A stretch of DNA of 16,470 nt from an uncultured Eubacteriales bacterium (GCA_964640345.1 CAZXFU010000029.1:1-16470); one strand, 5' to 3'; counted from the first letter of the stretch, positions 1,929 to 16,470 are shown. Program-made: numbers and translations. Notes: generated by a model not told the origin, from the letters alone.

Positions 1929-2624
1929 TTATTGTTTTAATCCGCCATTTATTTTTTCAAGTGCCTTTTTTTCAATTCTCGACACATAAGAGCGTGAAAT
2001 TCCTAATTCATTCGCAATTTCTTTTTGAGTTTTCTCTTTTTCTCCATTTAATCCATATCTCATTCTAACAATGTCAAGCTCTCGTTCAGTTAAAATCTCT
2101 TTCATTTTCTCTTTTAACTCCGCAACCTTTATTTTTGTCTCAACAGTCTCGTAAACATCCCCTTCGCCAGATTCAAGTACATCAATCAGCGATATGGAAT
2201 TTCCTTCCTTATCATGTCCAATTGGTTCATCTATAGAAACTTCATTACTCATTTTTTTAGAACTCCTAAGATACATTAAAATCTCATTTTGAACACACTT
2301 TGCAGCATAAGTTGCAAATCTGCTGGCTTTATCCGCATCAAATGTAGTTACAGCCTTTATAAGTCCAATTGCTCCTATCGAAATTAAGTCGTCACTGTCT
2401 CCCCATTGAGTAGAATACTTTTTTACGATATGTACAACAAGACGCATATTTCTTTCAATAAGAATGTTTTTTGCATCTTCGTCACCGGTCTTATACAAAT
2501 CAAAATACATCTTTTCTTCTTTTGCAGACAATGGTTTTGGGAAAGCATTCATCCCACTCCCGAGATAACCTAGGAAAAAGAAAAAATTATCCATTATGTA
2601 GCGAATAGCAACTAAAAAAAGCAT
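1929..2624 (-). CDS. sigK: Sporulation RNA polymerase sigma factor sigma-K (pro-sigma-K), uninterrupted
   Basis: Close resemblance to B. subtilis SigK as I recall it. NAFPKPLSAKEEKMYFDLYKTGDEDAKNILIERNMRLVVHIVKKY compares with [46 protein letters not shown]. Also DLISIGAIGLIKAV, YAAKCVQNEILMYLR, EPIGHDKEGNSISLIDVL and KTQKEIANELGISRSYVSRIEKKAL. The FP.PL motif (not the LPPPL of SigE) and a hydrophobic N-terminal pro-sequence (MLFLVAIRYIMDNFFFFLGYLGSG) are present. The track start is a TTG at 2639 that overlaps the SD. ATG 2624 sits 6 nt after GGAGGTG and is the likely start. Confidence 0.9.
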   Translation of the reverse strand: MLFLVAIRYIMDNFFFFLGYLGSGMNAFPKPLSAKEEKMYFDLYKTGDEDAKNILIERNMRLVVHIVKKYSTQWGDSDDLISIGAIGLIKAVTTFDADKASRFATYAAKCVQNEILMYLRSSKKMSNEVSIDEPIGHDKEGNSISLIDVLESGEGDVYETVETKIKVAELKEKMKEILTERELDIVRMRYGLNGEKEKTQKEIANELGISRSYVSRIEKKALEKINGGLKQ

Positions 2625-2649
2625 AGCGTACACCTCCAAAAAGAACTTG

Positions 2650-5413: not shown

Positions 5414-6376
5414 TTACTTAAGTACCTCCCTTAAAACATCTACATTTCTTTCCATTAGTTCTAAGTACGTAACACCATTGTTAAAATCTTCTTTAGACAC
5501 ATTATGACAAGAATGAAGTTCGGCTTTAGTGGAGCCTGTCATATTACATATAGCATCTGCCACGTTTCCGTTAGAAAATTCAGTGTATAAAACCTTTGAG
5601 ATTTTTTCGTCTTTTACCTTCTGTGCTAAGAAATTAATTGTAGCAAGGCTTGGCTCCGAATTAGAAGAACAGCCTTTAAATGCCGCATAATACTTTAAAC
5701 CGTATTGCTCAGTCAAATATCTAAAAGGAAATCTCTCGGCGAATACCAAAGTCTTAACCCTAGCGTTTTCTACAACTTCCAAAAAATCACTATCTAATTT
5801 TTCTAATTTTTTCACATATTCGCTCGCATTACTTTTGTAATATTCTGAATTCTCAACATCCAATTCACATAAAGTATCACATATCTTATTAACAATTTTT
5901 ATAGCATTTACCGGCGAAGTCCAAACATGCTCATCTACCTCATTTTCATCCTCTTCATGTTCGTTTTCGTCTTCTTCCATTCCTTCTACTTCTTCCTCTT
6001 TAAGGGTGCTAACCGCATCAATAAGCGAAATTGTTTTTAATGAAGAAGAATTAACAGTCGATAAAACATCATTAACCCATTCATCACTTTCCCCGCCAAC
6101 ATATATAAATAAGTCGCTTTTTTCAATATCACTTATATCCTGTAAAGTTGGTTCAAATCCATGTGATTCAACACCGGGAGACAAAAGCATCCTTAACTCA
6201 ACTTTATCTCCGGCTACAGCCCTGACAAAATCATATTGCGGAAAAATGGTTGCAATTACCTTTAACTTGTCCGACTCTAAATTACCGGATATTTCTTTTG
6301 TTCCACATCCGGTACTACAAAGAATTAAAAAGCACGCAAAAAAGAATACCAAAAAGGTATTAAAATTTTTTCTCAT
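5414..6376 (-). CDS. znuA: Metal ABC transporter substrate-binding lipoprotein (cluster A-I, ZnuA/AdcA-like) with acidic/His loop
   Basis: Lipobox LILCSTG-C. Candidate metal-ligand contexts ESHGFEP and DEHVWTSP. Acidic loop EEEVEGMEEDENEHEEDENEVDEH. The track start 6403 lacks an SD. ATG 6376 (MRKNF...) is 9 nt after AGGAG. Zn versus Mn specificity is not provable from sequence alone. Confidence 0.85.
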   Translation of the reverse strand: MRKNFNTFLVFFFACFLILCSTGCGTKEISGNLESDKLKVIATIFPQYDFVRAVAGDKVELRMLLSPGVESHGFEPTLQDISDIEKSDLFIYVGGESDEWVNDVLSTVNSSSLKTISLIDAVSTLKEEEVEGMEEDENEHEEDENEVDEHVWTSPVNAIKIVNKICDTLCELDVENSEYYKSNASEYVKKLEKLDSDFLEVVENARVKTLVFAERFPFRYLTEQYGLKYYAAFKGCSSNSEPSLATINFLAQKVKDEKISKVLYTEFSNGNVADAICNMTGSTKAELHSCHNVSKEDFNNGVTYLELMERNVDVLREVLK

Positions 6377-6406
6377 ATTAAGCATCTCCTTTGAAATTGA
6401 CAAATA

Positions 6407-6435
6407 ATCATAGAAGAAGCCTGTTTAATCATTAA
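6407..6435 (-). promoter_or_regulatory. Candidate internal promoter with 11-bp palindrome (Zur-box-core-like) upstream of znuA
   Basis: Minus strand: TTAATG (6430-6435), 17 nt, TATGAT (6407-6412). The palindrome TTAATGATTAA (6425-6435) overlaps the -35 and contains TAATnATTA, the core of the Firmicute Zur box as I recall it. It is short and AT-only, so chance is plausible. Confidence 0.25.
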
Positions 6436-6709
6436 TTCTAACTTTCAACTCAACCGGTAACAATTTAAAACTTCTATATCTAGTATTCTCACAATAATTT
6501 CTAATAACTTCGATTATTAACTTAAACATTAAAGCAATCAGCACCACACAGCTAAAATTCTGTACTAGATTGTATAATGTACATATAATACATCCATTAT
6601 GAACGCAGCAATGATTAAAAAATTCAAAAGAAACAGAACTTAAGGAAAATGACAATGCAAAAATAATAATTATCATCAAAACAACCAACATTCTTTTTAA
6701 CATTTTCAT
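6425..6709 (-). CDS. Small Cys-rich membrane protein, hypothetical
   Basis: 94 aa from ATG 6709 (MKMLKRMLVVLMIIIIFALSF...), preceded by AGGAGTGTGAGGAAA. Two hydrophobic segments flank FNHCCVHNGCIICTLYN, with further Cys in NFSCVV and NYCEN. Sits directly upstream of znuA. Coding status is not certain. Confidence 0.5.
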   Translation of the reverse strand: MKMLKRMLVVLMIIIIFALSFSLSSVSFEFFNHCCVHNGCIICTLYNLVQNFSCVVLIALMFKLIIEVIRNYCENTRYRSFKLLPVELKVRIND

Positions 6710-6730
6710 TTTCCTCACACTCCTTTTTAA

Positions 6731-6760
6731 AAATGATATCATTTAAAGAATAAAATTCAA
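6731..6760 (-). promoter_or_regulatory. Candidate promoter with perfect 14-bp palindrome (Fur-family-like operator) heading the metal-uptake genes
   Basis: AAATGATATCATTT (6731-6744) is a perfect palindrome. On the minus strand, TTGAAT (6755-6760), 16 nt, TATCAT (6733-6738), so the palindrome covers the -10. The half-site AATGAT/ATCATT is the core of classical Fur-type boxes. It lies in the gap between the STAS stop (6789) and ATG 6709. Confidence 0.35.
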
Positions 6761-6788
6761 TAGATTTCATCAAAAATTCAGAATACAC

Positions 6789-7094
6789 TTATGCAATAGT
6801 CAAAACTCCCATGAATCCTGTAATCTCAAACACTTCTTTTAATGTTTTGCTAGCATTCGTGATAACTAGCTGCCCTTGCAAAGCATTAATCTTTTTCTGT
6901 GTACTAAGTAATACTCTAAGACCTGCTGAACTAAGGTATGTAACACCTGCCATATCTAACTCTAAGTTTTTAACTTCATCACTAACTAAAAGCTCTGTAA
7001 TAGCATTTTCTAGCTCCGGAGCAGTATTTGTATCAAGTTTGCCCCCTAACTTTAAAACAATTCCATCTTCATTATTCTCCCTAACAATCTCCAT
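6789..7094 (-). CDS. STAS-domain anti-sigma-factor antagonist (SpoIIAA/RsbV family)
   Basis: LKLGGKLDTNTAPELENAI...LELDMAGVTYLSSAGLRVLLSTQKKINALQGQLVITNASKTLKEVFEITGFMGVL is typical of anti-anti-sigma proteins. A Ser is conserved at the phosphorylatable position (LSSAGL versus DSSGLG). The track start is a TTG at 7115. ATG 7094 (MEIVREN...) follows GAGGAGAGGA. Confidence 0.85.
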   Translation of the reverse strand: MEIVRENNEDGIVLKLGGKLDTNTAPELENAITELLVSDEVKNLELDMAGVTYLSSAGLRVLLSTQKKINALQGQLVITNASKTLKEVFEITGFMGVLTIA

Positions 7095-7111
7095 ATTACT
7101 CAATCCTCTCC

Positions 7112-7738
7112 TCAAAGTAAAATAAACGCCAACAAATTAACTGACATATGTCCGACTAACGGTGCAAAAATGCTATTAAATCGTTCAAATAAGAAAGCAT
7201 AAAATACTGCCGATAAAAAAGCAATCATCCCCCAAATAATATTGCCATGTATAATTCCAAACAAGGTTGCTTGTAATAACCCAGCAATGTATACATTAAT
7301 ATTCTTTTTTAGCTCGCCAAACAACAACCCCCTAAAAAGTAGCTCTTCGGACATCGGAGCAAAAATCACTATAGCCAAAAATCCTATAATGCTCTTTCCG
7401 TTAGAAAAATCGCTTTCAAGAGAATTTATCATATCATTTCTCATGCCTTCTGCAAACAAAAGTTGCACACTTTGGATCACGAGATTAATAAAAAGAGTCA
7501 AACATATAATAAATAAAACACTCTTAATTGAAATTCTCCTAATTCCTAACCTCTCACTAAACTCCCACCTGAAAATCCGTGCCATCACGAACACTAAACA
7601 AATAAATATAAGTGAACTAAAAATAGTACTAAGTAATATGTCACTTGGTATAGCACTCAAAAGAAATGACTGGCAAACGCCGAACAAAATAACATACCCA
7701 AAACACTTTGCAATCGACACTATAATATTCTTTATCAA
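7112..7738 (-). CDS. CPBP family intramembrane glutamic endopeptidase (CAAX protease/Abi family)
   Basis: Polytopic protein with the three CPBP motifs: EELLFRGLLF (EExxxR), FGIIHG (FxxxH) and GHMSVNL (HxxxN). TTG start at 7738 with GAGGAGA 7 nt upstream, 2 nt after the upstream stop. Confidence 0.85.
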   Translation of the reverse strand: MIKNIIVSIAKCFGYVILFGVCQSFLLSAIPSDILLSTIFSSLIFICLVFVMARIFRWEFSERLGIRRISIKSVLFIICLTLFINLVIQSVQLLFAEGMRNDMINSLESDFSNGKSIIGFLAIVIFAPMSEELLFRGLLFGELKKNINVYIAGLLQATLFGIIHGNIIWGMIAFLSAVFYAFLFERFNSIFAPLVGHMSVNLLAFILL

Positions 7739-7740
7739 AA

Positions 7741-8532
7741 CTAAATCTCCTCTTCTTCTAAAGTAGGATAAAAATACTCATTTATAACATTATTTACCTC
7801 AGTAAGTAATTCATCATTTCCCTTTGCGACCAGTCCAACATACTCAAGCAGTTTCCAGTCTGCCAAAGTATTAATTTCTAACGTGTCAGCATTCTCGGAA
7901 ACTACATTTTCTGCCTCGTTTTTATAACAAATAACTGCATCAATATTGTATAAAAGTAATTGGTCAATCGCATTATCTAAACTCTTGTACTGCTTAATAT
8001 CCGAAGCAACACCGGATACATCACTCTTAACCAAAGAAGTAAGCGGAGTATCTGAAATAAGTGCAACTTTTTTATCTGCAAAATCATGCAAACTAAAAAT
8101 TGTAACCCCCTTATTTGTAATAACATATGGCTCTTCTTTTGCAAAAACCAACGATTGATTAACCTTAAATTTGTCACTTTCATTTTTCTCAATTTTGCCA
8201 AACGCAATATCAACACTGCCATCCGTTATTAACTCAGCAACTTCGGCACGCGACGTTTTTATAAGATTAACTTTAACAGCATTCTTCTTAACAAAGTTCC
8301 CAATAATCTGCTCTTCAATATGATATATCTTGTCGTTTTCTTTCATTGCCTCATTATTTTCAGTTCCGGTGTCCTTATTCATAAACGGATATCTGTCTGT
8401 TGAAAAAGCTATATTTACGGTTCCATCTCCACGAATTTCCTCAATCGTCCTATATGCCACTTCTTCTTTACCACAGCCAGTAACCATAAACAGAATAAAT
8501 AAAAGCGGGATAAACTTAACAAATCTTTTCAT
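7741..8532 (-). CDS. Orphan family-3 solute-binding-protein-like lipoprotein (amino-acid SBP fold)
   Basis: Lipobox LFMVTG-C. SBP_bac_3-like layout: GTVNIAFSTDRYPFMNKD..., ...LITDGSVDIAFGKIEKNESD..., ...DFADKKVALISDTPL..., ...LLLYNIDAVICYKNEAE..., ...GLVAKGNDELLTEVNNVI. No cognate permease or ATPase is adjacent. Its SD (GGAGG) overlaps the TAG stop of the upstream VirB4 gene. Confidence 0.8.
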   Translation of the reverse strand: MKRFVKFIPLLFILFMVTGCGKEEVAYRTIEEIRGDGTVNIAFSTDRYPFMNKDTGTENNEAMKENDKIYHIEEQIIGNFVKKNAVKVNLIKTSRAEVAELITDGSVDIAFGKIEKNESDKFKVNQSLVFAKEEPYVITNKGVTIFSLHDFADKKVALISDTPLTSLVKSDVSGVASDIKQYKSLDNAIDQLLLYNIDAVICYKNEAENVVSENADTLEINTLADWKLLEYVGLVAKGNDELLTEVNNVINEYFYPTLEEEEI

Positions 8533-8543
8533 TTTTCATCCTC

Positions 8544-11210
8544 CTAACTAAACAATTCCTCAACACTAGGTGCAGCAACAATGTCAATACTTGTTCTACT
8601 CGTCGGACTGGTCACAACAAACGCCTGACCTCTTCCGTTATTTATAATCTTCTCTTGCTCACTTTCATTAATCTCGCCAGCTTTTTCATATAATTTACAC
8701 AAATCATGCATATCATTCGGTGCCAAAGCAAAAATAAATGAATACTGACAAGCATTTATAATAGCTGTAGACTTTCTTGCAATTTCTTCAGTCCCTACAA
8801 AATCCTTAATATTTTGTGTAATAATAATTTGCATACCATTATATTTTCTGATTCGTTTAGCCAATTGGAACATAAAGTCAAGTGCAATAGGATACTTTTC
8901 ATCAATAAAAACATGTGCCTCGTCAATAACAACTATTATTTTCCTATTAGCATTATATTTCATATTGTAATCTCTGTTTTTTATAATCTCGTTATCGAGC
9001 CATTTTAATACTAAAAGCATCTGAGCATTAGCAATTGTATTATTTTTGTTAGCAAGTAAACTTTGGAAATTAAACACAACAAAATTTTCTTCAGTAGAAA
9101 TCGTGGCTTCCCCATTCCACAAATTAGAGTTTCTGCCACCGGTAGAAAACTTTGAAATGTATGTAAGAAGCGTTCTTAAATTATTTTTACTATAATCTCC
9201 CTGCGTCTTTTGATATTCAAACAAAATAGCATCATATAAATCGTCAAATGTTGGAAAGTCCGCCGGTTTTAATTTACTTATATCTGTAGTTTCGTCAATT
9301 CCACGAGTAGCGTACACACGTAAAATCAAGTTGTTAAGATATTCCATTGCATCATTATCAAGTCCGTTTAAAATCTGTCTAAAAAATTCCTCTAGGAATT
9401 GTAAATGTGCCGAAAAACTTGTATTAACCGCATTTTCATCCTCTGTTTCATCAACACTTGCAACAATTTGAAACGGATTTAATCTGCCTTGTTTAGCACT
9501 TCCAACATCAATCAATTTGCCATGCAAATTTTTAGCAAGTGTAGCATACTCATTTTCAGGATCTAAAATAAATACCTTACTATCCTCAGCCGCTAAATTT
9601 GTAAGCATCATCTTTGTAGCATAAGATTTACCACTACCGGATTTTCCGATAATAACCATGTTGCTGTTAACTCTCTCTCTGTCTCTTCTAAAGAAATTCA
9701 AGAAAACAGGATAGCCATTACTGTTACCAAGGTTAATTCCGCCCGCGTCAGATAAAACACTATTAACAAATGGAAATACAGCAGCAACGGACGTCGAATG
9801 AATGCTTCTTGATTTCTTAATTAGCGGATCATATGCAGATAACTGACCACCAACATATGCATCAAACTGTTGCATAAACATATCATCAGTCTTAAAACCT
9901 TCTTCAGATAGAGCTCTCTTTACTCGTTTCTTAAAATTAACTCTTGATTTAGCCTTCTCTTCCGTAGTTCTTCTATCATAAACCGTAATATACACATTGA
10001 CTTCAAATAGTGTTTCATTATCACTCTGAAGCGTTGCCAAAACTTCAGACAAAGTATCTATATGATTAGTAAGCTCAATAATTTTACTTGTCTTTCCTGT
10101 CGCATTTCCCTGCCCACGAAGTTCATCAATCGCCCTATCAATACGCCTTACAGCCTGATATTTATCCACCGGCTTTAGTTTCATAACAACCTTAGTGTTA
10201 GGAATATCAAACAGTCTATAACCCCACGCATTATAAACCGACATAGGGAAATCTGTAATTCTTAAATTATGCGTAACTACGCCGTCATATTCAATAGTGC
10301 GTCCAAACATCTCAATTTTGTCCGGCAAAATCCAATCCATATAATTCTCTGGAGCAATATTTTCTATTTCTCTCTCATCAAAATCATACGTATAATTATA
10401 CTTTAAAAACACAGCAAGTTCTTTATCGTCTAACACCTTTACATTCATATTATTTGCAGTTAATGATTCATATGCAAACCTAAGCTGTTCCTCAATCAAA
10501 GTCTTATCGGTATCGTAAATAACAAGATAATGAAAAGCCTTAATAATATGAGCTTCTTTATTTATATAATTAATGTCTTCTCTTCTTTGAGTCAAAACAT
10601 TAAGCCTTACGTCAAGCTCTTCTTTTGTTAACATTCCATTAGAAAAAGCATTCCTTAATTCCGCAATCTTTTGATTTTCAGATACAATATAATCATCATA
10701 GTTGATTGGTCTGTCAATTTTTACGAGATTTGCAGCCTGTTCACCTGATAAATTTCTTAAAATTGAGCCAAACACTTTATCTATAAGATTATTTTGTCTA
10801 AACTCACTGTAGAATCTAAACTCAACAGGCGAAATCTCAATAACACCCGCAACATATTTCCCATTAAAATCAATTAACCCATTTTCAATTTTACTAAACG
10901 GAGTAATGTCATAAATATCATATTCCTTCTTTTTAGCCCTATTATTCGGATGTTTTACAAAATTTCTTTTATAAGATAAATGCCTTATAATGTTATTAAT
11001 AAGAACATATGTCTGATCATCATCAATTTTTACCAGCAATACAACAAATAACAGTGTAACCGCCAGCATAATCCAATACTTAAAAGCCAAATTTGACAAA
11101 AACAGGAACACAACAATAGTAATTCCTATTAGTCCTATAATCACATCTGCTAAACCAATCCCTTTAAAAAGTTCCATCTTAACTCTAGTGTTCTTTGGAA
11201 TAATACGCAT
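8544..11210 (-). CDS. VirB4-family type IV secretion/conjugal transfer ATPase with fused N-terminal VirB3/PrgI-like two-TM segment
   Basis: 888 aa. N-terminus IIPKNTRVKMELFKGIGLADVIIGLIGITIVVFLFL...WIMLAVTLLFVVLLV forms two TM helices in the style of small PrgI/TcpE/Orf17 proteins. Walker A IIGKSGSGKSY (nt 9624-9647) is followed by FILDPENEY. Walker B is IIVVIDEAHVF. Then KRIRKYNGMQIIITQNIKDF, typical of the VirB4 C-terminus. GGGGGG lies 6 nt upstream of the ATG. Confidence 0.85.
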   Translation of the reverse strand: MRIIPKNTRVKMELFKGIGLADVIIGLIGITIVVFLFLSNLAFKYWIMLAVTLLFVVLLVKIDDDQTYVLINNIIRHLSYKRNFVKHPNNRAKKKEYDIYDITPFSKIENGLIDFNGKYVAGVIEISPVEFRFYSEFRQNNLIDKVFGSILRNLSGEQAANLVKIDRPINYDDYIVSENQKIAELRNAFSNGMLTKEELDVRLNVLTQRREDINYINKEAHIIKAFHYLVIYDTDKTLIEEQLRFAYESLTANNMNVKVLDDKELAVFLKYNYTYDFDEREIENIAPENYMDWILPDKIEMFGRTIEYDGVVTHNLRITDFPMSVYNAWGYRLFDIPNTKVVMKLKPVDKYQAVRRIDRAIDELRGQGNATGKTSKIIELTNHIDTLSEVLATLQSDNETLFEVNVYITVYDRRTTEEKAKSRVNFKKRVKRALSEEGFKTDDMFMQQFDAYVGGQLSAYDPLIKKSRSIHSTSVAAVFPFVNSVLSDAGGINLGNSNGYPVFLNFFRRDRERVNSNMVIIGKSGSGKSYATKMMLTNLAAEDSKVFILDPENEYATLAKNLHGKLIDVGSAKQGRLNPFQIVASVDETEDENAVNTSFSAHLQFLEEFFRQILNGLDNDAMEYLNNLILRVYATRGIDETTDISKLKPADFPTFDDLYDAILFEYQKTQGDYSKNNLRTLLTYISKFSTGGRNSNLWNGEATISTEENFVVFNFQSLLANKNNTIANAQMLLVLKWLDNEIIKNRDYNMKYNANRKIIVVIDEAHVFIDEKYPIALDFMFQLAKRIRKYNGMQIIITQNIKDFVGTEEIARKSTAIINACQYSFIFALAPNDMHDLCKLYEKAGEINESEQEKIINNGRGQAFVVTSPTSRTSIDIVAAPSVEELFS

Positions 11211-11234: not shown

Positions 11235-13436
11235 CTACTTAGATAAAATATTCTTTTGTTCAGTCGAAAGACCAGTATTGCCACCTGTAGGCAATGATTT
11301 CGATGCACCGCCAGTCGCTTCGGACTTAACAATATTAGCCACTTCACTTGCCGCTCCGACTGCAACCTCCGCAATTCCCATCTCTGCAAGTGCAGCCTGC
11401 GGATCAATAAGTTTCATAAGCAAATTATGTGATTTAAACACCGCATAACACCCGGCAGTCAAAAGTAAAATCATAAAACCTGCATTTATAAAAGTATTTG
11501 TCGAAAAAACAACACTACCGTCAGTAACAATCGGTAAAACTATTCCTACAAATAACTTCATCATAATAACAAGTCCAAAACCAGAAACCAATTTTGCTAT
11601 AAACAATTTTCTCCAATCAGAAAATTTTTCGCACCCATCAAGTGAAATTGTCGCTGCAAAATACGGAGAAACAATAAATAACAAAATCAAATCAAAAATT
11701 CTTGTAACAAACATAATAATTGCAAGTGATAAAAGCAAAATTATGTATATACTTAAAAACAATCCGCCAATTATCTTAAAATACGAAAAATAAAAATACT
11801 CGGAAGAATCGGATGAACGTTCATATTTCGTACTGTTGTTATAAAATGAAATCCTTGCTCTATCTGTAAAAGACGGATTTTCAGAACAATCTTCATAATC
11901 TGTAGTCTCTTCCCCAAATGACAAAATCATAAACAGAGTATTACCCAAAGTCAAATTCGTTCCACTTGCATTTATCGTTATTATATCATCAATCTTAAGT
12001 AGAACAGCCGATGCAAGATTAATACTTATAATAACAAAAATCGGTACAATAGCATATGTCAAAAAGCTCTTTCCAATCTGACCCAAAATATTTCCTATTG
12101 ACTTTTCCCTATCATCAGTAAAAATTGCTCTAGTAACGCTGATTATAGCAAAAATCAAATTAAGTGCTATTCCTAAAATAAACACTCCCCAAAACACGTT
12201 TCTTATAGTAGTATCTTCAAACAACATATTTACAAAAATCGTACTAACTCCATCAACCATAATAGGTTTAGTGCCTGCAAAAATGCTAAAGATGTTCATA
12301 AGAGCATCTATAATTCTAAGCAAGAAAAGTAACGCTTCAAACATCCACATTCTTGCCCAAAATGTAACTATGTCGATATACAAGAAAAACAACTTTTCAA
12401 TAAGCCCACTTTGCTCAGTAAGCAATTTATTAAGTAACTCTAAAAACAAATCAAGAATTGGCTGAATAAGTGCATAAAGCATATTAACCAAAGTTCCAAA
12501 AGTTCCCTGCAAAGTATCAGATATCCTGTTTGACGCGTCCTCAATGCTAAGTCCAGACTCAGAATCAATATCAATATCGGCAGCAGTTTTTTCAAATTCT
12601 TCCTTAGTAAGTCGCTCAATAGGTGTTATATACTTTTCTTCAACAGTTAAAAATTCCAAATCATTCAAACTATAATGCCCATCATCATTAATAATTTCAA
12701 AATAATGCGTGCCGGCAGGTAATTCAATTTCTCCTGAAGCTTCAACATATTCCGAACTCGTTTCATTATGTTCAATGGTTGCAAGTTCTCCATTATCAAG
12801 CCTTAATACAAGTCTGTTTCCATCTGTACCTTCAAACTTACCCTTTGTAATAAATTTATATACCCCCGATTTATCCACAGCAATCTTGTAATCAACAAAA
12901 TCCCCGGGGTTCATATAAATGCTATTTTCGGAAAAAGTGCAACCGTATGATCCAAGCTTATCGCTAATAGGTATTTTCCCGGGCACAGAATTTCCACCGT
13001 TTAAGTTTCTTGTAACTAGAGAAAATTCCATATTTGAAAAATCCCAATTCTTTGCCAGTGAATGAACAGAAAGTTTATGCTTACCGGACGAAAACGATAT
13101 TGAAAAAATTATTTCTTCTTCATTCCCATCTTCATTCCAAGGTACTTTGCTCTCTTCCACAATTTTTTCTGAGTCACAATATATTTCAAATTTGCTATCA
13201 TCTTGGTATTCTTCATCTAAATTAGTAGCAAAAAACTTAAGTTCATACGTTCCGGGTACAACAACGTTTATTCCATAATCCAGCCAATCTGTTTCAGAGT
13301 TGTTTATATACCGTGATTTATGAATACTAAGGTCATAGTCGTCAGTAGCATGCGAAGAAAACGGTATACATATGAAAATTCCAAAAGTAAATGCTATAAA
13401 CATTAGCTTTTTTACTATGCTACTCAACACTATCAC
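11235..13436 (-). CDS. Secreted tandem CBM6/35-like beta-sandwich repeats fused to a polytopic membrane domain (putative VirB6/TrbL-analog T4SS channel subunit, paralog a)
   Basis: Signal peptide ...KKLMFIAFTFGIFICIPFSSHA-TDD. Two roughly 115-aa repeats share the pattern DW/F-x-DY-x-I-x-V...G-x-Y...(S/A)G-x-H...(M/L)EF. The C-terminal ~440 aa is multi-TM and paralogous to the next two ORFs (TRIFDLILLFIVSPYFAATISLDGCEKFSDWRKLFIAKLVSGFG). The start is ambiguous: GTG 13436/13430 or TTG 13427, after GGGGGTGA. That this is a real gene is near certain; the VirB6-like role is inferred from context and topology only. Confidence 0.6.
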   Translation of the reverse strand: MIVLSSIVKKLMFIAFTFGIFICIPFSSHATDDYDLSIHKSRYINNSETDWLDYGINVVVPGTYELKFFATNLDEEYQDDSKFEIYCDSEKIVEESKVPWNEDGNEEEIIFSISFSSGKHKLSVHSLAKNWDFSNMEFSLVTRNLNGGNSVPGKIPISDKLGSYGCTFSENSIYMNPGDFVDYKIAVDKSGVYKFITKGKFEGTDGNRLVLRLDNGELATIEHNETSSEYVEASGEIELPAGTHYFEIINDDGHYSLNDLEFLTVEEKYITPIERLTKEEFEKTAADIDIDSESGLSIEDASNRISDTLQGTFGTLVNMLYALIQPILDLFLELLNKLLTEQSGLIEKLFFLYIDIVTFWARMWMFEALLFLLRIIDALMNIFSIFAGTKPIMVDGVSTIFVNMLFEDTTIRNVFWGVFILGIALNLIFAIISVTRAIFTDDREKSIGNILGQIGKSFLTYAIVPIFVIISINLASAVLLKIDDIITINASGTNLTLGNTLFMILSFGEETTDYEDCSENPSFTDRARISFYNNSTKYERSSDSSEYFYFSYFKIIGGLFLSIYIILLLSLAIIMFVTRIFDLILLFIVSPYFAATISLDGCEKFSDWRKLFIAKLVSGFGLVIMMKLFVGIVLPIVTDGSVVFSTNTFINAGFMILLLTAGCYAVFKSHNLLMKLIDPQAALAEMGIAEVAVGAASEVANIVKSEATGGASKSLPTGGNTGLSTEQKNILSK

Positions 13437-13460: not shown

Positions 13461-15254
13461 TCAAAATTTATTCCCGTTATCCTTTTTATCTGTTGGCTTT
13501 GCCTTTTTCCAAACAGAATCGTTGTTTTTTTCCTTTGGCTTAGGTCCACTGCTTGCTCTACCTGATGAAAAATCAGCAGTTCCACCATAAAAACTATTTT
13601 GTGAAACTTTATTATCAGATGTGATTCCCTGGGTTCTATTAGCCGTGCCATTTCTCCATGTTGACGTACTTTGAATACTGTTATTTATCTTACTTCCAAT
13701 AGATATACTGCTGTTTTTCGTAGCAAATTCACTGGCACTGCCATTCTGCCATGCCCTTCTGTGACTTCCGATTTCAATATTACTACTCTTTTCTCTATGG
13801 GAACCAATCATAATATTTTTATTTCTTGTAACATCATTAGATGTACTAACTCTATTATACATATTCAAATTAGGATTCCTATTAGTAATAGTTCCAGCGA
13901 CAGCAGGTTTTAAGCCGTTCTCTGCTGATTTAAGCCCACTTCCTCTTAACGCCTTCATTCCCATGTTCTTTGCAGACATCATAAAACCAAAACCAGCCTG
14001 AGCATTAGCAGATTCAGAATAAGAAGCCTGAACATTTAATATTTGCATAAGAAGCGAATTAGATTTATAAATAGCAAATGCTCCACCTACAATAAATAAT
14101 ACTTTAAGTCCCATATTAACGAAGTTAACAGATGAAAGTTCTAAATTGGAGCTCATAATTATAGGTACAAGAATAATATAAATTTTCATTCCTATTAACA
14201 TTCCAAAACCTGAAAACAGTTTCGCAATAAACATATTACGCCATTCATTAAATTTAGCGCCATCATCTAAAGGAATTGTTGCAACAAAAAACGGTGATGC
14301 AATATACAAAAGTAATACTTCAAAAATTCTTGTAATAAAAACAAATGTACAAATTATAAGCATAATTAACACAAAAAGTGCCATAAACAATCCTAAAACC
14401 GTTTTAACCTGTACAATATTAAAATCGCTCATTACATCCCCGGGATTCCAGTAGTTTTTCTTTCCTGAATAATAATCCGCTCTGACACCATCTGTAAAAC
14501 CTGCAATAGTTCCGCTACTATTATTATTTTTTAGTGCCTCTGCCATTTCTGCCGAGCTCATCTCTCCTGCCGTGTTTTCTTCTGCTTCTAAAGTCGAGGC
14601 TAAAAACAACACAGTACCAAGAGACGGTGTATCCATTCCTACACTCATAGAAAGAATTTCATTAGTCTTTTTTATAACAACATTAGTCATATTAAGTGCA
14701 AACAATGTAAAAAAAGGAACAATCAAAAACGTAAGTCCTGTCTTTAATATAGAACCAATAACCTTTCCGACGGGTCTTTTACCCTCTAAATCTGTTGTAG
14801 ACCTCATAACGGCAATTATTCCAAAAACAATTGAAACCGAAAAAGCAAGTAGCGTAATCGACCAAAATATTTTTGAAACACCGGAATTAGTAAAAAATAC
14901 ATTAAGCAAGAAATCACTGCTTCTTTGACCATTCTTAACTACAGTAATATCACTTACACCACCAAAAATATTAAAAGCATACTCTAAAATGTCTATAATC
15001 CTCAAAACCGCCACATACAAATAATACGTTCTTATATGTATCCACGCTAAAAATAAATCCCCGATAAGTCCAAGTATCGGCTCAACAAGTGATTTAAAGA
15101 AAGGACCCAATACAGGAATAAGTACATCATTTATAACAGTATTAAGTACCGTAGATATTACTTTACCAATCGCATCAGTAACAGGTGTTACAACAGCATC
15201 ATAAATTGCACCTGTTATATCTTTAATACTTATAAGCGGTAAAAACTTAAACAT
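13461..15254 (-). CDS. Polytopic membrane protein, putative VirB6/TrbL-analog (paralog b) with long Ser/Asn/Gly-rich repetitive C-terminal tail
   Basis: 597 aa, GAGGTGA 5 nt upstream of the ATG. The core aligns with paralogs a and c (TRIFEVLLLYIASPFFVATIPLDDGAKFNEWRNMFIAKLFSGFG; LRIIDILEYAFNIFGG). About 190 aa of hydrophilic tail follow, with repeats IMIGSHR / NIEIGSHR / SISIGSK and WQNGSA / WRNGTA. Confidence 0.6.
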   Translation of the reverse strand: MFKFLPLISIKDITGAIYDAVVTPVTDAIGKVISTVLNTVINDVLIPVLGPFFKSLVEPILGLIGDLFLAWIHIRTYYLYVAVLRIIDILEYAFNIFGGVSDITVVKNGQRSSDFLLNVFFTNSGVSKIFWSITLLAFSVSIVFGIIAVMRSTTDLEGKRPVGKVIGSILKTGLTFLIVPFFTLFALNMTNVVIKKTNEILSMSVGMDTPSLGTVLFLASTLEAEENTAGEMSSAEMAEALKNNNSSGTIAGFTDGVRADYYSGKKNYWNPGDVMSDFNIVQVKTVLGLFMALFVLIMLIICTFVFITRIFEVLLLYIASPFFVATIPLDDGAKFNEWRNMFIAKLFSGFGMLIGMKIYIILVPIIMSSNLELSSVNFVNMGLKVLFIVGGAFAIYKSNSLLMQILNVQASYSESANAQAGFGFMMSAKNMGMKALRGSGLKSAENGLKPAVAGTITNRNPNLNMYNRVSTSNDVTRNKNIMIGSHREKSSNIEIGSHRRAWQNGSASEFATKNSSISIGSKINNSIQSTSTWRNGTANRTQGITSDNKVSQNSFYGGTADFSSGRASSGPKPKEKNNDSVWKKAKPTDKKDNGNKF

Positions 15255-15276: not shown

Positions 15277-16470
15277 TTATTTCTTCAAAATATTACCAAT
15301 AGATGACTTACTCCCCAAGCCACTTTTATTTCCAATACTACTTGTAAAATCATTTTTTAACGAATTAGACATATTATCTCCGCCACGAAACGCATTACTT
15401 CCTTTTTTATTGTTCTTACCACTATTACCGTCTTCATCTTCGCCTTTTAACACCATATTGCCAATAGATTTTCCCGCATCAAGTGCCATATTTTTAGCAT
15501 CCATAGCAAGTGTAGCCCCACCTGACGCCACTGCCTTAACAGCCACAGTACCATACTTTATTCCGGCTCTTACCGCACGAGTAGCAATTTCACTCGATAA
15601 TCCGGCTTCTTGATAAGCAGCGTTTATATTAACAATTTGAATAATAAGATTACCAGACTTATATGCAGCCCATAAACCACCTATAAGGAATAATGCTTTA
15701 ACTAGCGTATTCATAAGTGCACTGTCTGAAAAAACAACTCTGTCTGACATAACAATCGGAGAAATAATAAAGAACAATTTCATCACAATAACCATTCCAA
15801 AACCACCAAGCATTTTTGCAATAAACATTTTAACCCATTCTTTAAACTTAACCCCCCCATCAAGTACCACAGTTGCCACAAAAAATGGTGAAGTAATATA
15901 CAAAATCAGAACCTCAAATATCTTAACCACAAATACCAACGCACAAAGCACAATTATAAATATCATAACCGCACAAATAACAAACGCTAAAAAGTAATTT
16001 ATCTTTTCAATTGCAAAATCATTCATACCATCTAATGCATAATCTTTTTTACCGGATAAATATGATGCCCTTAGCTCATCGGTAAAAGTTGCATTACGAT
16101 TATATTCGTCATCCCTTGCCGCATCCATAGTAAGTGTAAGAAATGTAAGTGTTCCAAGACTTGCACTATTCTCCCCGCTTTGAGTGAGAGTAACAATTTC
16201 ACTTGTTTTCCTTAAAACAACAGATGAAAGATTAAGTAAAATTAGCGATAAGAAAGGTATCAAAAACAATGCAATCATAGCTTTAAAAGACATTCCTAAA
16301 ATCTGGCCATTAGTCTGTTTTACTTCTAAATTGCTCATATTTTTAATAATCGCAATAATTGTAAAGATAATTAAAATCGCTAATGCAATAAGCGTAACAG
16401 ACCAAAAAACTCTATTTATAACATTATTTCTGAAAAACACACTAAGTAAAAAATCTTTATTTCCATTATA
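15277..16470 (-). CDS. Polytopic membrane protein, putative VirB6/TrbL-analog (paralog c); N-terminus lies beyond the window
   Basis: The track begins it at GTG 16440, but the frame stays open to 16470. The extra residues YNGNKDFLLSVFFRNN align with paralog b NGQRSSDFLLNVFFTN, so the gene is truncated by the window. Core: VKIFEVLILYITSPFFVATVVLDGGVKFKEWVKMFIAKMLGGFG. The hydrophilic tail contains SIGN repeats. Confidence 0.6.
   Translation of the reverse strand, partial: YNGNKDFLLSVFFRNNVINRVFWSVTLIALAILIIFTIIAIIKNMSNLEVKQTNGQILGMSFKAMIALFLIPFLSLILLNLSSVVLRKTSEIVTLTQSGENSASLGTLTFLTLTMDAARDDEYNRNATFTDELRASYLSGKKDYALDGMNDFAIEKINYFLAFVICAVMIFIIVLCALVFVVKIFEVLILYITSPFFVATVVLDGGVKFKEWVKMFIAKMLGGFGMVIVMKLFFIISPIVMSDRVVFSDSALMNTLVKALFLIGGLWAAYKSGNLIIQIVNINAAYQEAGLSSEIATRAVRAGIKYGTVAVKAVASGGATLAMDAKNMALDAGKSIGNMVLKGEDEDGNSGKNNKKGSNAFRGGDNMSNSLKNDFTSSIGNKSGLGSKSSIGNILKK

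Follow-up and report, generated by a model that had tools for sequence, protein, structure and literature searches.

The 3' end of a type IV secretion gene block

We analysed a stretch of 16,470 nucleotides (nt) from an uncultured Eubacteriales bacterium (GCA_964640345.1, CAZXFU010000029.1:1-16470; hereafter the window), in which genes for a lipoprotein resembling solute-binding proteins (SBPs), a CPBP membrane protease and a STAS protein follow the gene for the VirB4-type ATPase of a type IV secretion system (T4SS). All genes of the window lie on the minus strand, and its GC content is even (31-35%). The first of the four, virB4 (8544..11210), encodes an 888-residue protein of the type known from integrative and conjugative elements (ICEs) of Mollicutes, which matches the Pfam families P-loop_TraG and DUF87 and scores 586 bits against the NCBIfam model NF045975 (Mbov_0397 family), just under its cut-off of 590. 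At the junction with the next gene (8533..8546) the TAG stop codon of virB4 lies inside TAGGAGG and overlaps the Shine-Dalgarno site of the SBP gene, whose ATG (8532) follows after 11 nt; in relatives this gap is 8-19 nt. The SBP gene (7741..8532) encodes a 263-residue SBP_bac_3-like lipoprotein, assigned from profile and Pfam matches, with the lipobox VTGC and Cys20. Its stop codon (7743-7741) is separated by 2 nt from the TTG start (7738) of a gene for a 208-residue CPBP/Rce1-like glutamic intramembrane protease (7112..7738; PF02517), and the TGA of the latter (7114-7112) by 17 nt from the ATG (7094) of the gene for a 101-residue, single-domain STAS anti-sigma-factor antagonist (6789..7094; TIGR00377), the last gene of the conserved cluster described below. 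A reading made earlier from the sequence alone (the sequence-only reading) had placed all four genes and their junctions correctly, and domain searches back the names that it gave to the SBP, CPBP and STAS proteins. A pattern scan of 6300-8800 found no terminator-like site.

The same order is kept in 11 independent relatives, with VirB4 directly upstream of the trio and gaps of -4 to 27 nt (loci L007, L010-L014, L017 and L027-L029, complete or as far as the contig extends); 4 of the 11 are metagenome-assembled genomes labelled uncultured Clostridia, Eubacteriales or plain "bacterium". Moreover, SBP, CPBP and STAS have the same tight or overlapping junctions in every context that was recovered. 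The arrangement is far from chance. The sequence-only reading had proposed that the trio forms the 3' end of the T4SS-like unit and had offered co-occurrence with this VirB4 in other genomes as a check; the linkage is conserved in every relative that carries the T4SS, so that the lack of conservation named there as a refutation is not observed, and the shared order and junctions bear out the proposal.

The genes of the block differ in how strongly they are conserved across relatives. With the window copy as reference for VirB4 and the trio, and the L019 or L007 copy for the other proteins, identity is 91-98% for VirB4, 87-89% for the coupling protein VirD4, 83-90% for STAS, 64-76% for SBP, 60-73% for the VirB6 paralogues and 40-49% for CPBP; in the closest relative, L017, SBP reaches 86% and CPBP 80%. 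Constraint on VirB4 is unusually strong when set beside that on neighbouring genes of the cluster such as the three adjacent VirB6-like paralogues (60-78% identical across species).

The first sizeable gap comes only after STAS, as the sequence-only reading had noted, and it holds the promoter- and operator-like elements reported there. This boundary region (6710..6788, minus strand) measures 79 nt when 6709 is taken as the start of the next gene, as in other assemblies, and contains a sigma-70-like site (TTGAAT at 6760-6755, a 16-nt spacer and TG-TATCAT at 6738-6733) overlapped by a perfect 14-bp palindrome, AAATGATATCATTT, at 6744-6731. Beyond it lie a gene for a small Cys-rich membrane protein and then genes for ZnuA, ZnuC, ZnuB and a DUF1980 protein. 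The region is probably the promoter and operator of this next, unrelated zinc-uptake operon, and AAATGATATCATTT may be the operator for a metal repressor. The zinc-uptake operon is not found at the corresponding place in other relatives, in which STAS is followed instead by a glutathionylspermidine-synthase-like gene or by a set encoding a 171-residue protein, a 416-residue protein, a DUF6320 protein and RmuC. Because the downstream genes differ in this way, STAS marks the 3' edge of the conserved block. The sigma factor encoded further downstream in the window (1929-2639) is the sporulation factor SigK (321 bits), and the organism is therefore probably a spore former. We considered this protein as the target of the STAS protein or its kinase and rejected it, given its identity as SigK and its absence from the downstream flanks of the relatives examined.

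The full cluster and its putative partner switch

Longer contigs of relatives show that the trio closes a cluster of about 23 kb in which all genes run in the same direction and the gaps range from -4 to 199 nt. The cluster opens with genes for a PP2C phosphatase, a kinase, an SLH/NHL wall protein, a FecR-domain protein, a CHASE2 cyclase and a protein of about 600 residues, continues with an extracytoplasmic function (ECF) sigma factor, a soluble 69-residue protein, VirD4 (CD1115 family) and a pilin-like protein of the Mbov_0395 type, and ends with a membrane-anchored 360-residue protein, VirB6-like proteins a, b and c, VirB4, SBP, CPBP and STAS. The phosphatase combines cNMP_binding (cyclic nucleotide monophosphate, cNMP) and SpoIIE domains and is encoded directly upstream of the 135-residue kinase, which carries an HATPase_c_2 domain (PF13581) and matches the RsbW model at 3e-10; the kinase gene stands with it at the cluster head in L005, L018, L019 and L020. 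In the last three of these loci the pair directly precedes the genes from the SLH/NHL protein through FecR, the CHASE2 cyclase, the 600-residue protein, the ECF sigma factor, the 69-residue protein and VirD4 to the pilin. Phosphatase and kinase lie about 19 kb upstream of STAS, past the window edge. The complete set is encoded on a single 33-kb NCBI contig, of which L018 and L017 are portions and whose VirB4 is 98% identical to that of the window.

These contexts change how the trio is to be understood. No RsbW-type kinase, PP2C phosphatase or family-3 permease or ATPase is encoded within the 16.5-kb window, and the sequence-only reading had concluded that none of the three proteins has its usual partners here. 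This holds for SBP, which has no permease or ATPase anywhere in the cluster, but not for STAS: because kinase and phosphatase open the same cluster in relatives, their apparent lack is an effect of the window boundary. The appendix to the secretion apparatus that had been suggested as a possibility is therefore not self-contained: the kinase, the phosphatase, the CHASE2 cyclase and the ECF sigma factor share the cluster of the trio, which forms one side of a wider regulatory framework enclosing the T4SS genes. The regulatory role that was among the suggestions for the trio is the best reading for STAS.

Assignment of STAS to the anti-sigma-factor antagonists follows from its scores against Pfam STAS (72 bits) and TIGR00377 (83 bits, cut-off 53). 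In alignments to SpoIIAA structures its Ser56 falls on the phospho-acceptor Ser58 of SpoIIAA, and the motif around it, TYLSSAGLRVLL, is invariant among orthologues. A STAS protein with a conserved serine, an HATPase_c_2 kinase and a PP2C/SpoIIE phosphatase, the last two from the clusters of relatives, are together the components of a partner switch. Homologues of the phosphatase at about 44% identity number in the thousands in public data, many of them from Lachnospiraceae, and in the four contexts that we looked up (L021-L024, two distinct arrangements) they belong to a compact module of FecR, cNMP-binding PP2C, CHASE2 cyclase, HATPase_c_2 kinase, STAS, a GGDEF protein and a T2SSE ATPase (for example L021 9066-16218 and L023 9057-17014). 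Identity between the cluster and this module is even (43% for PP2C, 38-43% for the kinase, 42-44% for the cyclase and 43-48% for STAS), which suggests a common descent of the four proteins. In our literature search we found no description of a compact CHASE2/FecR/STAS/PP2C module, or of a cNMP-gated PP2C/STAS module, in Clostridia. Among the phosphatase orthologues, four proteins of about 523 residues (P0041, P0043, P0044 and P0045) have an HATPase_c_2 kinase domain fused to the cNMP-binding PP2C; such fusions support a functional pairing of kinase and phosphatase.

The sequence-only reading, which saw no kinase or phosphatase for STAS, would fit a stand-alone orphan that acts directly on VirB4 or the channel with neither enzyme involved. 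Consistent with this are the lack of either enzyme inside the window and the ability of STAS proteins to bind non-sigma targets, as HsbA does with HsbD (PMC5085249). Nevertheless, a kinase and a phosphatase of the cognate type are encoded in the same cluster of every relative whose contig extends that far, all four signalling proteins match the Lachnospiraceae module at the same level of identity, and the phospho-acceptor serine is conserved, so that we regard an orphan STAS as highly improbable.

The secretion genes themselves are those of a T4SS of the monoderm, Mollicute-ICE type, with VirB4, VirB6-like, pilin-like (VirB3-like) and VirD4 proteins encoded together. Besides the match of VirB4 to NF045975, proteins of the cluster match the T4SS models NF045848 and NF045889, NF045849 (57.7 bits, cut-off 40) and NF045973 (297 bits, cut-off 250). 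Upstream of virB4 in the window are the three VirB6-like paralogues, which belong to the MMCAP2_0566/Mbov_0396 family: c (11235..13436, minus strand, 733 residues, with a CBM6 domain found by CBM_6; 149 bits against NF045848), b (13461..15254, minus strand, 597 residues; 211 bits) and a (15277..16470, minus strand; 193 bits). The 5' end of the last is cut by the window edge; the protein has about 537 residues in relatives, and a tblastn match with the 537-residue protein of L007 extends to window base 16470.

No relaxase, integrase or transposase was detected in the cluster or its flanks. The upstream flank, with genes for glycogen synthase and RecG, is common to L005 and L019, and the downstream flank to L005 and L010-L012. 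A plasmid collection yielded only distant VirB4 proteins, at most 30% identical, with a Spiroplasma context that has no SBP, CPBP or STAS; a scan of viral contigs with the VirB4 alignment gave no match, and JGI metagenome contigs scanned with VirB4 gave one locus only, L025. Syntenic flanks, the lack of detected integrase, transposase and relaxase genes, and the low identity of plasmid VirB4 proteins together indicate a chromosomal, vertically inherited locus. With no mobility genes detected, shared synteny and even composition, the cluster does not have the features of an ICE or plasmid.

The protein of about 600 residues is soluble, 580-681 residues long and encoded at L019 16196-17938, with orthologues at L014 4524-6569 and L017 4422-6359. 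It contains a DRHGGN...GIDND motif and has weak Pfam matches to PI3/PI4-kinase and Fam20C; at 50-63% identity between relatives it ranks with the cluster's most variable proteins. It could be a secreted substrate.

A motif shared by the loci suggests how the cluster may be transcribed. Each cluster has exactly three copies of TGAGC-N17-CGTATA, all on the coding strand and each a short way upstream of a start codon: before PP2C, before the gene for the 600-residue protein, and between the ECF sigma gene and the genes for the 69-residue protein and VirD4 (L019 9957-9984, 16111-16138 and 18585-18612, with the same three places in L018/L017, L014 and L020). Eleven exact sites, all on the coding strand, are found in 207 kb of loci, where 0.035 would be expected. 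The window has no match even with one mismatch allowed, as its position downstream of all three sites would lead one to expect. The motif looks like a promoter for an alternative sigma factor of the ECF type. Ahead of the ECF sigma gene lie a terminator-like hairpin and a strong TTGACA-17-TATCAT site. We propose that the ECF sigma factor would read the three TGAGC-N17-CGTATA sites, the third of them driving the T4SS genes and, by read-through, SBP, CPBP and STAS.

A natural deletion variant provides further information. Two assemblies from different samples (L005 and L006) have PP2C, the kinase, a 350-residue protein and then SBP, CPBP and STAS, with no VirB4. The 350-residue protein (L005 8937-9989; L006 5095-6147) is 64% identical over residues 39-318 to the N-terminal part of the SLH/NHL protein and 95-100% identical over its last 45 residues to the C-terminus of VirB4, and the junction between the two parts is precise and in frame. 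We therefore rejected our candidate reading of this protein in L005 as a distinct gene that replaces the T4SS. Because it is an SLH/NHL-VirB4 fusion, a single deletion of about 18.5 kb has removed everything from FecR through VirB4, including the cyclase, the ECF sigma factor and the whole T4SS, while the sequence coupling virB4 to SBP was retained. A relative whose SBP is 87% identical (L027) retains VirB4. The deletion variant supports the view that both ends of the cluster belong to one locus.

The SBP-like lipoprotein and the CPBP protease

SBP scores 26.1 bits against Pfam SBP_bac_3, just under the cut-off of 26.4, and 23.2 bits against NMT1, and its family profile matches solved amino-acid-binding proteins at 1e-13 (4ymx). 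It has the type II periplasmic-binding fold and lipoprotein signal of the family-3 SBPs, and the lipobox Cys20 is invariant. On the other hand, no permease or ATPase for it is found in the window or at any locus of the cluster, and the Znu transporter downstream has its own ZnuA. When pocket positions were compared with those of solved binding proteins and the 120 nearest generic relatives, the positions that anchor the ligand, where the commonest residues are T/S, R and D, were found to be occupied by E115, D120 and Y203, which are invariant or nearly so; by this comparison the pocket is remodelled, not decayed. The family is an isolated one: a search of 5.8 billion proteins gave only 14 clusters, none below 61% identity, and among 1.84 billion representatives at 50% identity the score falls from 492 bits for its own cluster to 84 bits for the next match. 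An AlphaFold2 model computed from the 14-sequence alignment was too poor for a fold search (pLDDT 60, pTM 0.41).

The protease is a member of PF02517 (Rce1-like/CPBP; 62.6 bits, cut-off 22.4). Its motifs EExxxR, FxxxH and HxxxN are intact and invariant in 8 orthologues, and the catalytic half of the protein is strongly conserved while the N-terminal half evolves fast. None of the models for the subfamilies MroQ, MrtJ/S, LnsB and Rv0804 comes near its cut-off. At the C-terminus of the SBP family is a conserved FYPTxEEEE tail (window 7741-7790), which adjoins the start of the CPBP gene. CPBP proteases often act on C-terminal signals, and one may speculate that the tail is a substrate of CPBP.

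The single locus recovered from JGI contigs, L025 (54% GC), bears on the age of these associations. Its VirB4 is only 55% identical to that of the window, and the gene for a 240-residue SBP_bac_3 lipoprotein (51 bits) overlaps the VirB4 stop codon, with its start 4 nt ahead of it; an 89-residue protein and then a relative of the 360-residue protein follow. Judged from this locus, the pairing of SBP with VirB4 looks older than the linkage to CPBP and STAS, which argues for a function of SBP together with the secretion machine. In L025 the gene upstream of VirB4 (1-485) encodes collagen-like GxxGxx repeats in place of a VirB6 paralogue, and since it stands in the VirB6 position the cluster has been rearranged there.

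We can now weigh the idea that the trio has no connection with the T4SS and consists of chromosomal genes that happen to lie beside it. The genes downstream of STAS do vary between relatives, and the trio has outlasted the loss of the T4SS genes in L005 and L006. However, its order and its tight or overlapping junctions are kept in 11 relatives while the flanks change, an SBP lipoprotein is coupled to VirB4 in the distant lineage of L025 as well, and the searches of 5.8 billion proteins and 1.84 billion representatives found the SBP family nowhere else. We give this idea hardly any weight.

A second alternative is that SBP and CPBP provide self-protection against a toxin delivered by the T4SS. 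There are parallels in the Abi/CPBP bacteriocin immunity proteins and in the lipoprotein immunity factors of bacteria-killing T4SSs. The much faster evolution of CPBP and SBP than of VirB4 and STAS would fit such a function, as would the failure to detect a relaxase and the presence of the variable, soluble 600-residue protein with its weak PI3/PI4-kinase-like match and DRHGGN motif, which could be an effector. Variation in CPBP is nevertheless confined to its N-terminal half and its catalytic half is strongly conserved, there is no evident envelope target of the candidate effector for a lipoprotein to neutralise, no toxin domain was detected in any protein of the cluster, and both genes remain intact in the deletion variant even though the T4SS and the candidate effector have been lost. 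Immunity is, on this evidence, quite improbable.

In a third alternative, SBP and CPBP are a signal-dependent proteolytic input to the ECF sigma factor, such that a ligand-sensing SBP activates CPBP, which cleaves a membrane regulator such as the FecR-domain protein, with STAS acting in parallel. PrsW acts on RsiW in a comparable way. An ECF sigma factor and a FecR-domain protein are indeed encoded in one cluster, the catalytic motifs of CPBP are intact, the residues that replace the usual ones in the SBP pocket are invariant, and the ECF-like promoter motif occurs three times per cluster. The FecR-domain protein, however, co-occurs with the CHASE2 cyclase in the Lachnospiraceae module, which has no ECF sigma factor, SBP or CPBP, and it is therefore more likely the partner of the cyclase. 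Moreover, the gene that follows the ECF sigma gene encodes the soluble 69-residue protein and not a membrane anti-sigma factor, and in L025 SBP follows VirB4 with no adjacent CPBP. We consider a proteolytic input of this kind unlikely.

A proposed circuit and its place among known systems

We think it fairly probable, on balance, that the trio is, in uncultured spore-forming gut Clostridia, the fixed 3' end of a chromosomal cluster in which a cNMP-gated partner switch controls a T4SS with no relaxase in view. Gene content, order and conservation, the catalytic and phospho-acceptor motifs, the DNA motif and the deletion variant are observed, and all the biochemical steps set out here are inferred from them. 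Four blocks can be distinguished: a putative partner switch (the CHASE2 membrane cyclase with its FecR-domain partner, the cNMP-binding PP2C, the RsbW-type serine kinase and STAS); the ECF sigma factor followed by the 69-residue protein; a minimal Mollicute-type T4SS (VirD4, the pilin-like protein, three VirB6-like proteins and VirB4); and candidate envelope accessories (the SLH/NHL wall protein, the membrane-anchored 360-residue protein, the SBP-like lipoprotein and CPBP). In the proposed circuit, an envelope signal would cause the CHASE2 cyclase to raise the level of a cNMP, which would activate PP2C to remove the phosphate from Ser56 of STAS. Unphosphorylated STAS would then capture the kinase, causing it to let go of its target, either the ECF sigma factor or a secretion ATPase, so that the TGAGC-N17-CGTATA promoters fire and the T4SS is expressed or activated. 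Because STAS ends the T4SS unit and the phosphatase and kinase lie behind the same promoter motif, the switch would feed back on itself; the Bacillus sigB operon has a comparable feedback. SBP would not be a transport receptor in this circuit but a T4SS-linked surface lipoprotein, serving as a scaffold or as a sensor of a ligand other than an amino acid, and CPBP is predicted to be a proteolytically active membrane protein by which an envelope component of the system is matured or controlled.

More tentatively, and with rather less than even confidence, we propose the fuller version in which a domesticated T4SS, with no relaxase in view, is switched on by a cNMP-gated partner switch (CHASE2 cyclase to cNMP-PP2C to STAS and RsbW-type kinase) together with the ECF sigma factor, and in which the pocket-remodelled SBP-like lipoprotein and CPBP are unrecognised components of the T4SS.

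Several observations weigh against the proposed circuit. Its weakest step is the target of the RsbW-type kinase, for which the ECF sigma factor is no more than a candidate. RsbW-type kinases usually bind group-3 sigma factors, and the ECF sigma factor has a candidate partner of its own in the neighbouring 69-residue protein. The Lachnospiraceae module, moreover, has no sigma factor at all, and the outputs encoded nearby are the GGDEF protein and the secretion-type ATPase, so that the output of the switch may be non-transcriptional. The GGDEF output recalls HsbA-HsbD in Pseudomonas, a partner switch that acts on a diguanylate cyclase (PMC5085249). Transcription from the third promoter-like site could also be ended before the distal genes by a conserved hairpin and T-run between the pilin-like and 360-residue genes (L010 320-431, L011 327-439 and L014 9905-10003), perhaps an attenuator that may keep pilin transcripts in excess. 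In addition, the kinase, phosphatase, cyclase and ECF sigma genes lie outside the window, and their presence in this genome is inferred from relatives, of which the closest has a VirB4 98% identical. Finally, the roles that we favour for SBP and CPBP are drawn from linkage and sequence features, and the loss of the usual SBP pocket from alignments because the AlphaFold2 model is poor, and there is no CPBP or STAS in the remaining 1.6 kb of L025 beyond its distant VirB4.

Each part of the cluster is of a known kind; the combination and the wiring are new. The switch resembles the RsbU-RsbV-RsbW and SpoIIE-SpoIIAA-SpoIIAB systems of Bacillus in its single-domain STAS protein with the phospho-acceptor serine, its HATPase_c_2 kinase of the RsbW type and its SpoIIE/PP2C phosphatase, and in both cases the switch genes seem to lie behind promoters that they may control, for which the evidence here is the motif. 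It differs from them in that the phosphatase has a cNMP-binding input domain, a CHASE2 cyclase is encoded alongside, STAS lies about 19 kb from the kinase at the far end of the T4SS block, and the sole sigma factor of the cluster is of the ECF type and not group 3. Partner switches are known to govern other secretion-related machinery, namely BtrU-BtrW-BtrV, which controls type III secretion in Bordetella (PMC8256260, PMC7498569), and the switch that governs the Rhodobacter gene transfer agent (PMC3999984). As in Bordetella, where the factor is BtrS, a partner switch is encoded here with an ECF-type sigma factor and a secretion apparatus that it may govern; the secretion system (type III there, type IV here) and the phylum differ, and there is no cNMP link in Bordetella. 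The compact Lachnospiraceae module shares an orthologous core (38-48% identity) and a secretion-type ATPase beside the switch, but it occupies about 7 kb, has a diguanylate cyclase and a T2SSE ATPase as its neighbouring outputs, and lacks an ECF sigma factor, T4SS genes, SBP or CPBP.

The minimal T4SSs of Mollicute ICEs and Spiroplasma plasmids (Mbov_0395/0396/0397 and a coupling protein) have the same pilin-like, VirB6-like, VirB4 and coupling protein families, with no VirB1 or VirB8 detected. Identity to these systems is only about 28%, however, and the present cluster is chromosomal and syntenic across species, has no integrase or transposase, and has VirB6 in triplicate with CBM6 on one copy; SBP, CPBP and STAS are not part of the Mollicute systems. 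SBP has the fold family and lipoprotein anchor of family-3 (cluster F) amino-acid-binding proteins such as PDB 4ymx and GlnH, but it differs from them in having no permease or ATPase, in the replacement of the residues that hold the carboxylate and amino groups by E115, D120 and Y203, and in the isolation of its family. CPBP has the PF02517 domain and all three catalytic motifs of the CPBP/Abi proteases (Rce1, MroQ, the myxosortase-type Mrt and the bacteriocin immunity Abi proteins), from which it differs in falling below the cut-offs of the named subfamily models and in its fixed pairing with an SBP-like lipoprotein and a T4SS, of which we found no earlier description. Chromosomal T4SSs lacking relaxases have been described in Patescibacteria (PMC12102498). 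Neither a T4SS enclosed by a partner switch nor a T4SS with an SBP-like lipoprotein or a CPBP protease as its partner turned up in our literature search.

The object of interest thus appears to be larger than the trio, which would be the tail of a regulated chromosomal T4SS cluster, with STAS as the far end of the switch. According to a 2025 review, nearly all known functions of Gram-positive T4SSs are limited to DNA transfer, and other roles are a long-standing question (PMC12857230). A chromosomal cluster that is syntenic across species, has very strongly conserved ATPases and has no relaxase in view is a concrete candidate for such a role. The signalling circuit around its T4SS genes can be tested part by part (cyclase, cNMP-phosphatase, kinase, STAS and ECF sigma factor), and the L005-type natural deletion is an existing strain for comparison. 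The analysis also brings to light a widespread cNMP-gated partner-switching module of Lachnospiraceae and places an isolated SBP-like family and one CPBP protease in a functional context for the first time. If the fuller version of the interpretation is correct, the cluster would provide the first case of a T4SS controlled by partner switching and, for Firmicutes, a candidate T4SS that is not conjugative.

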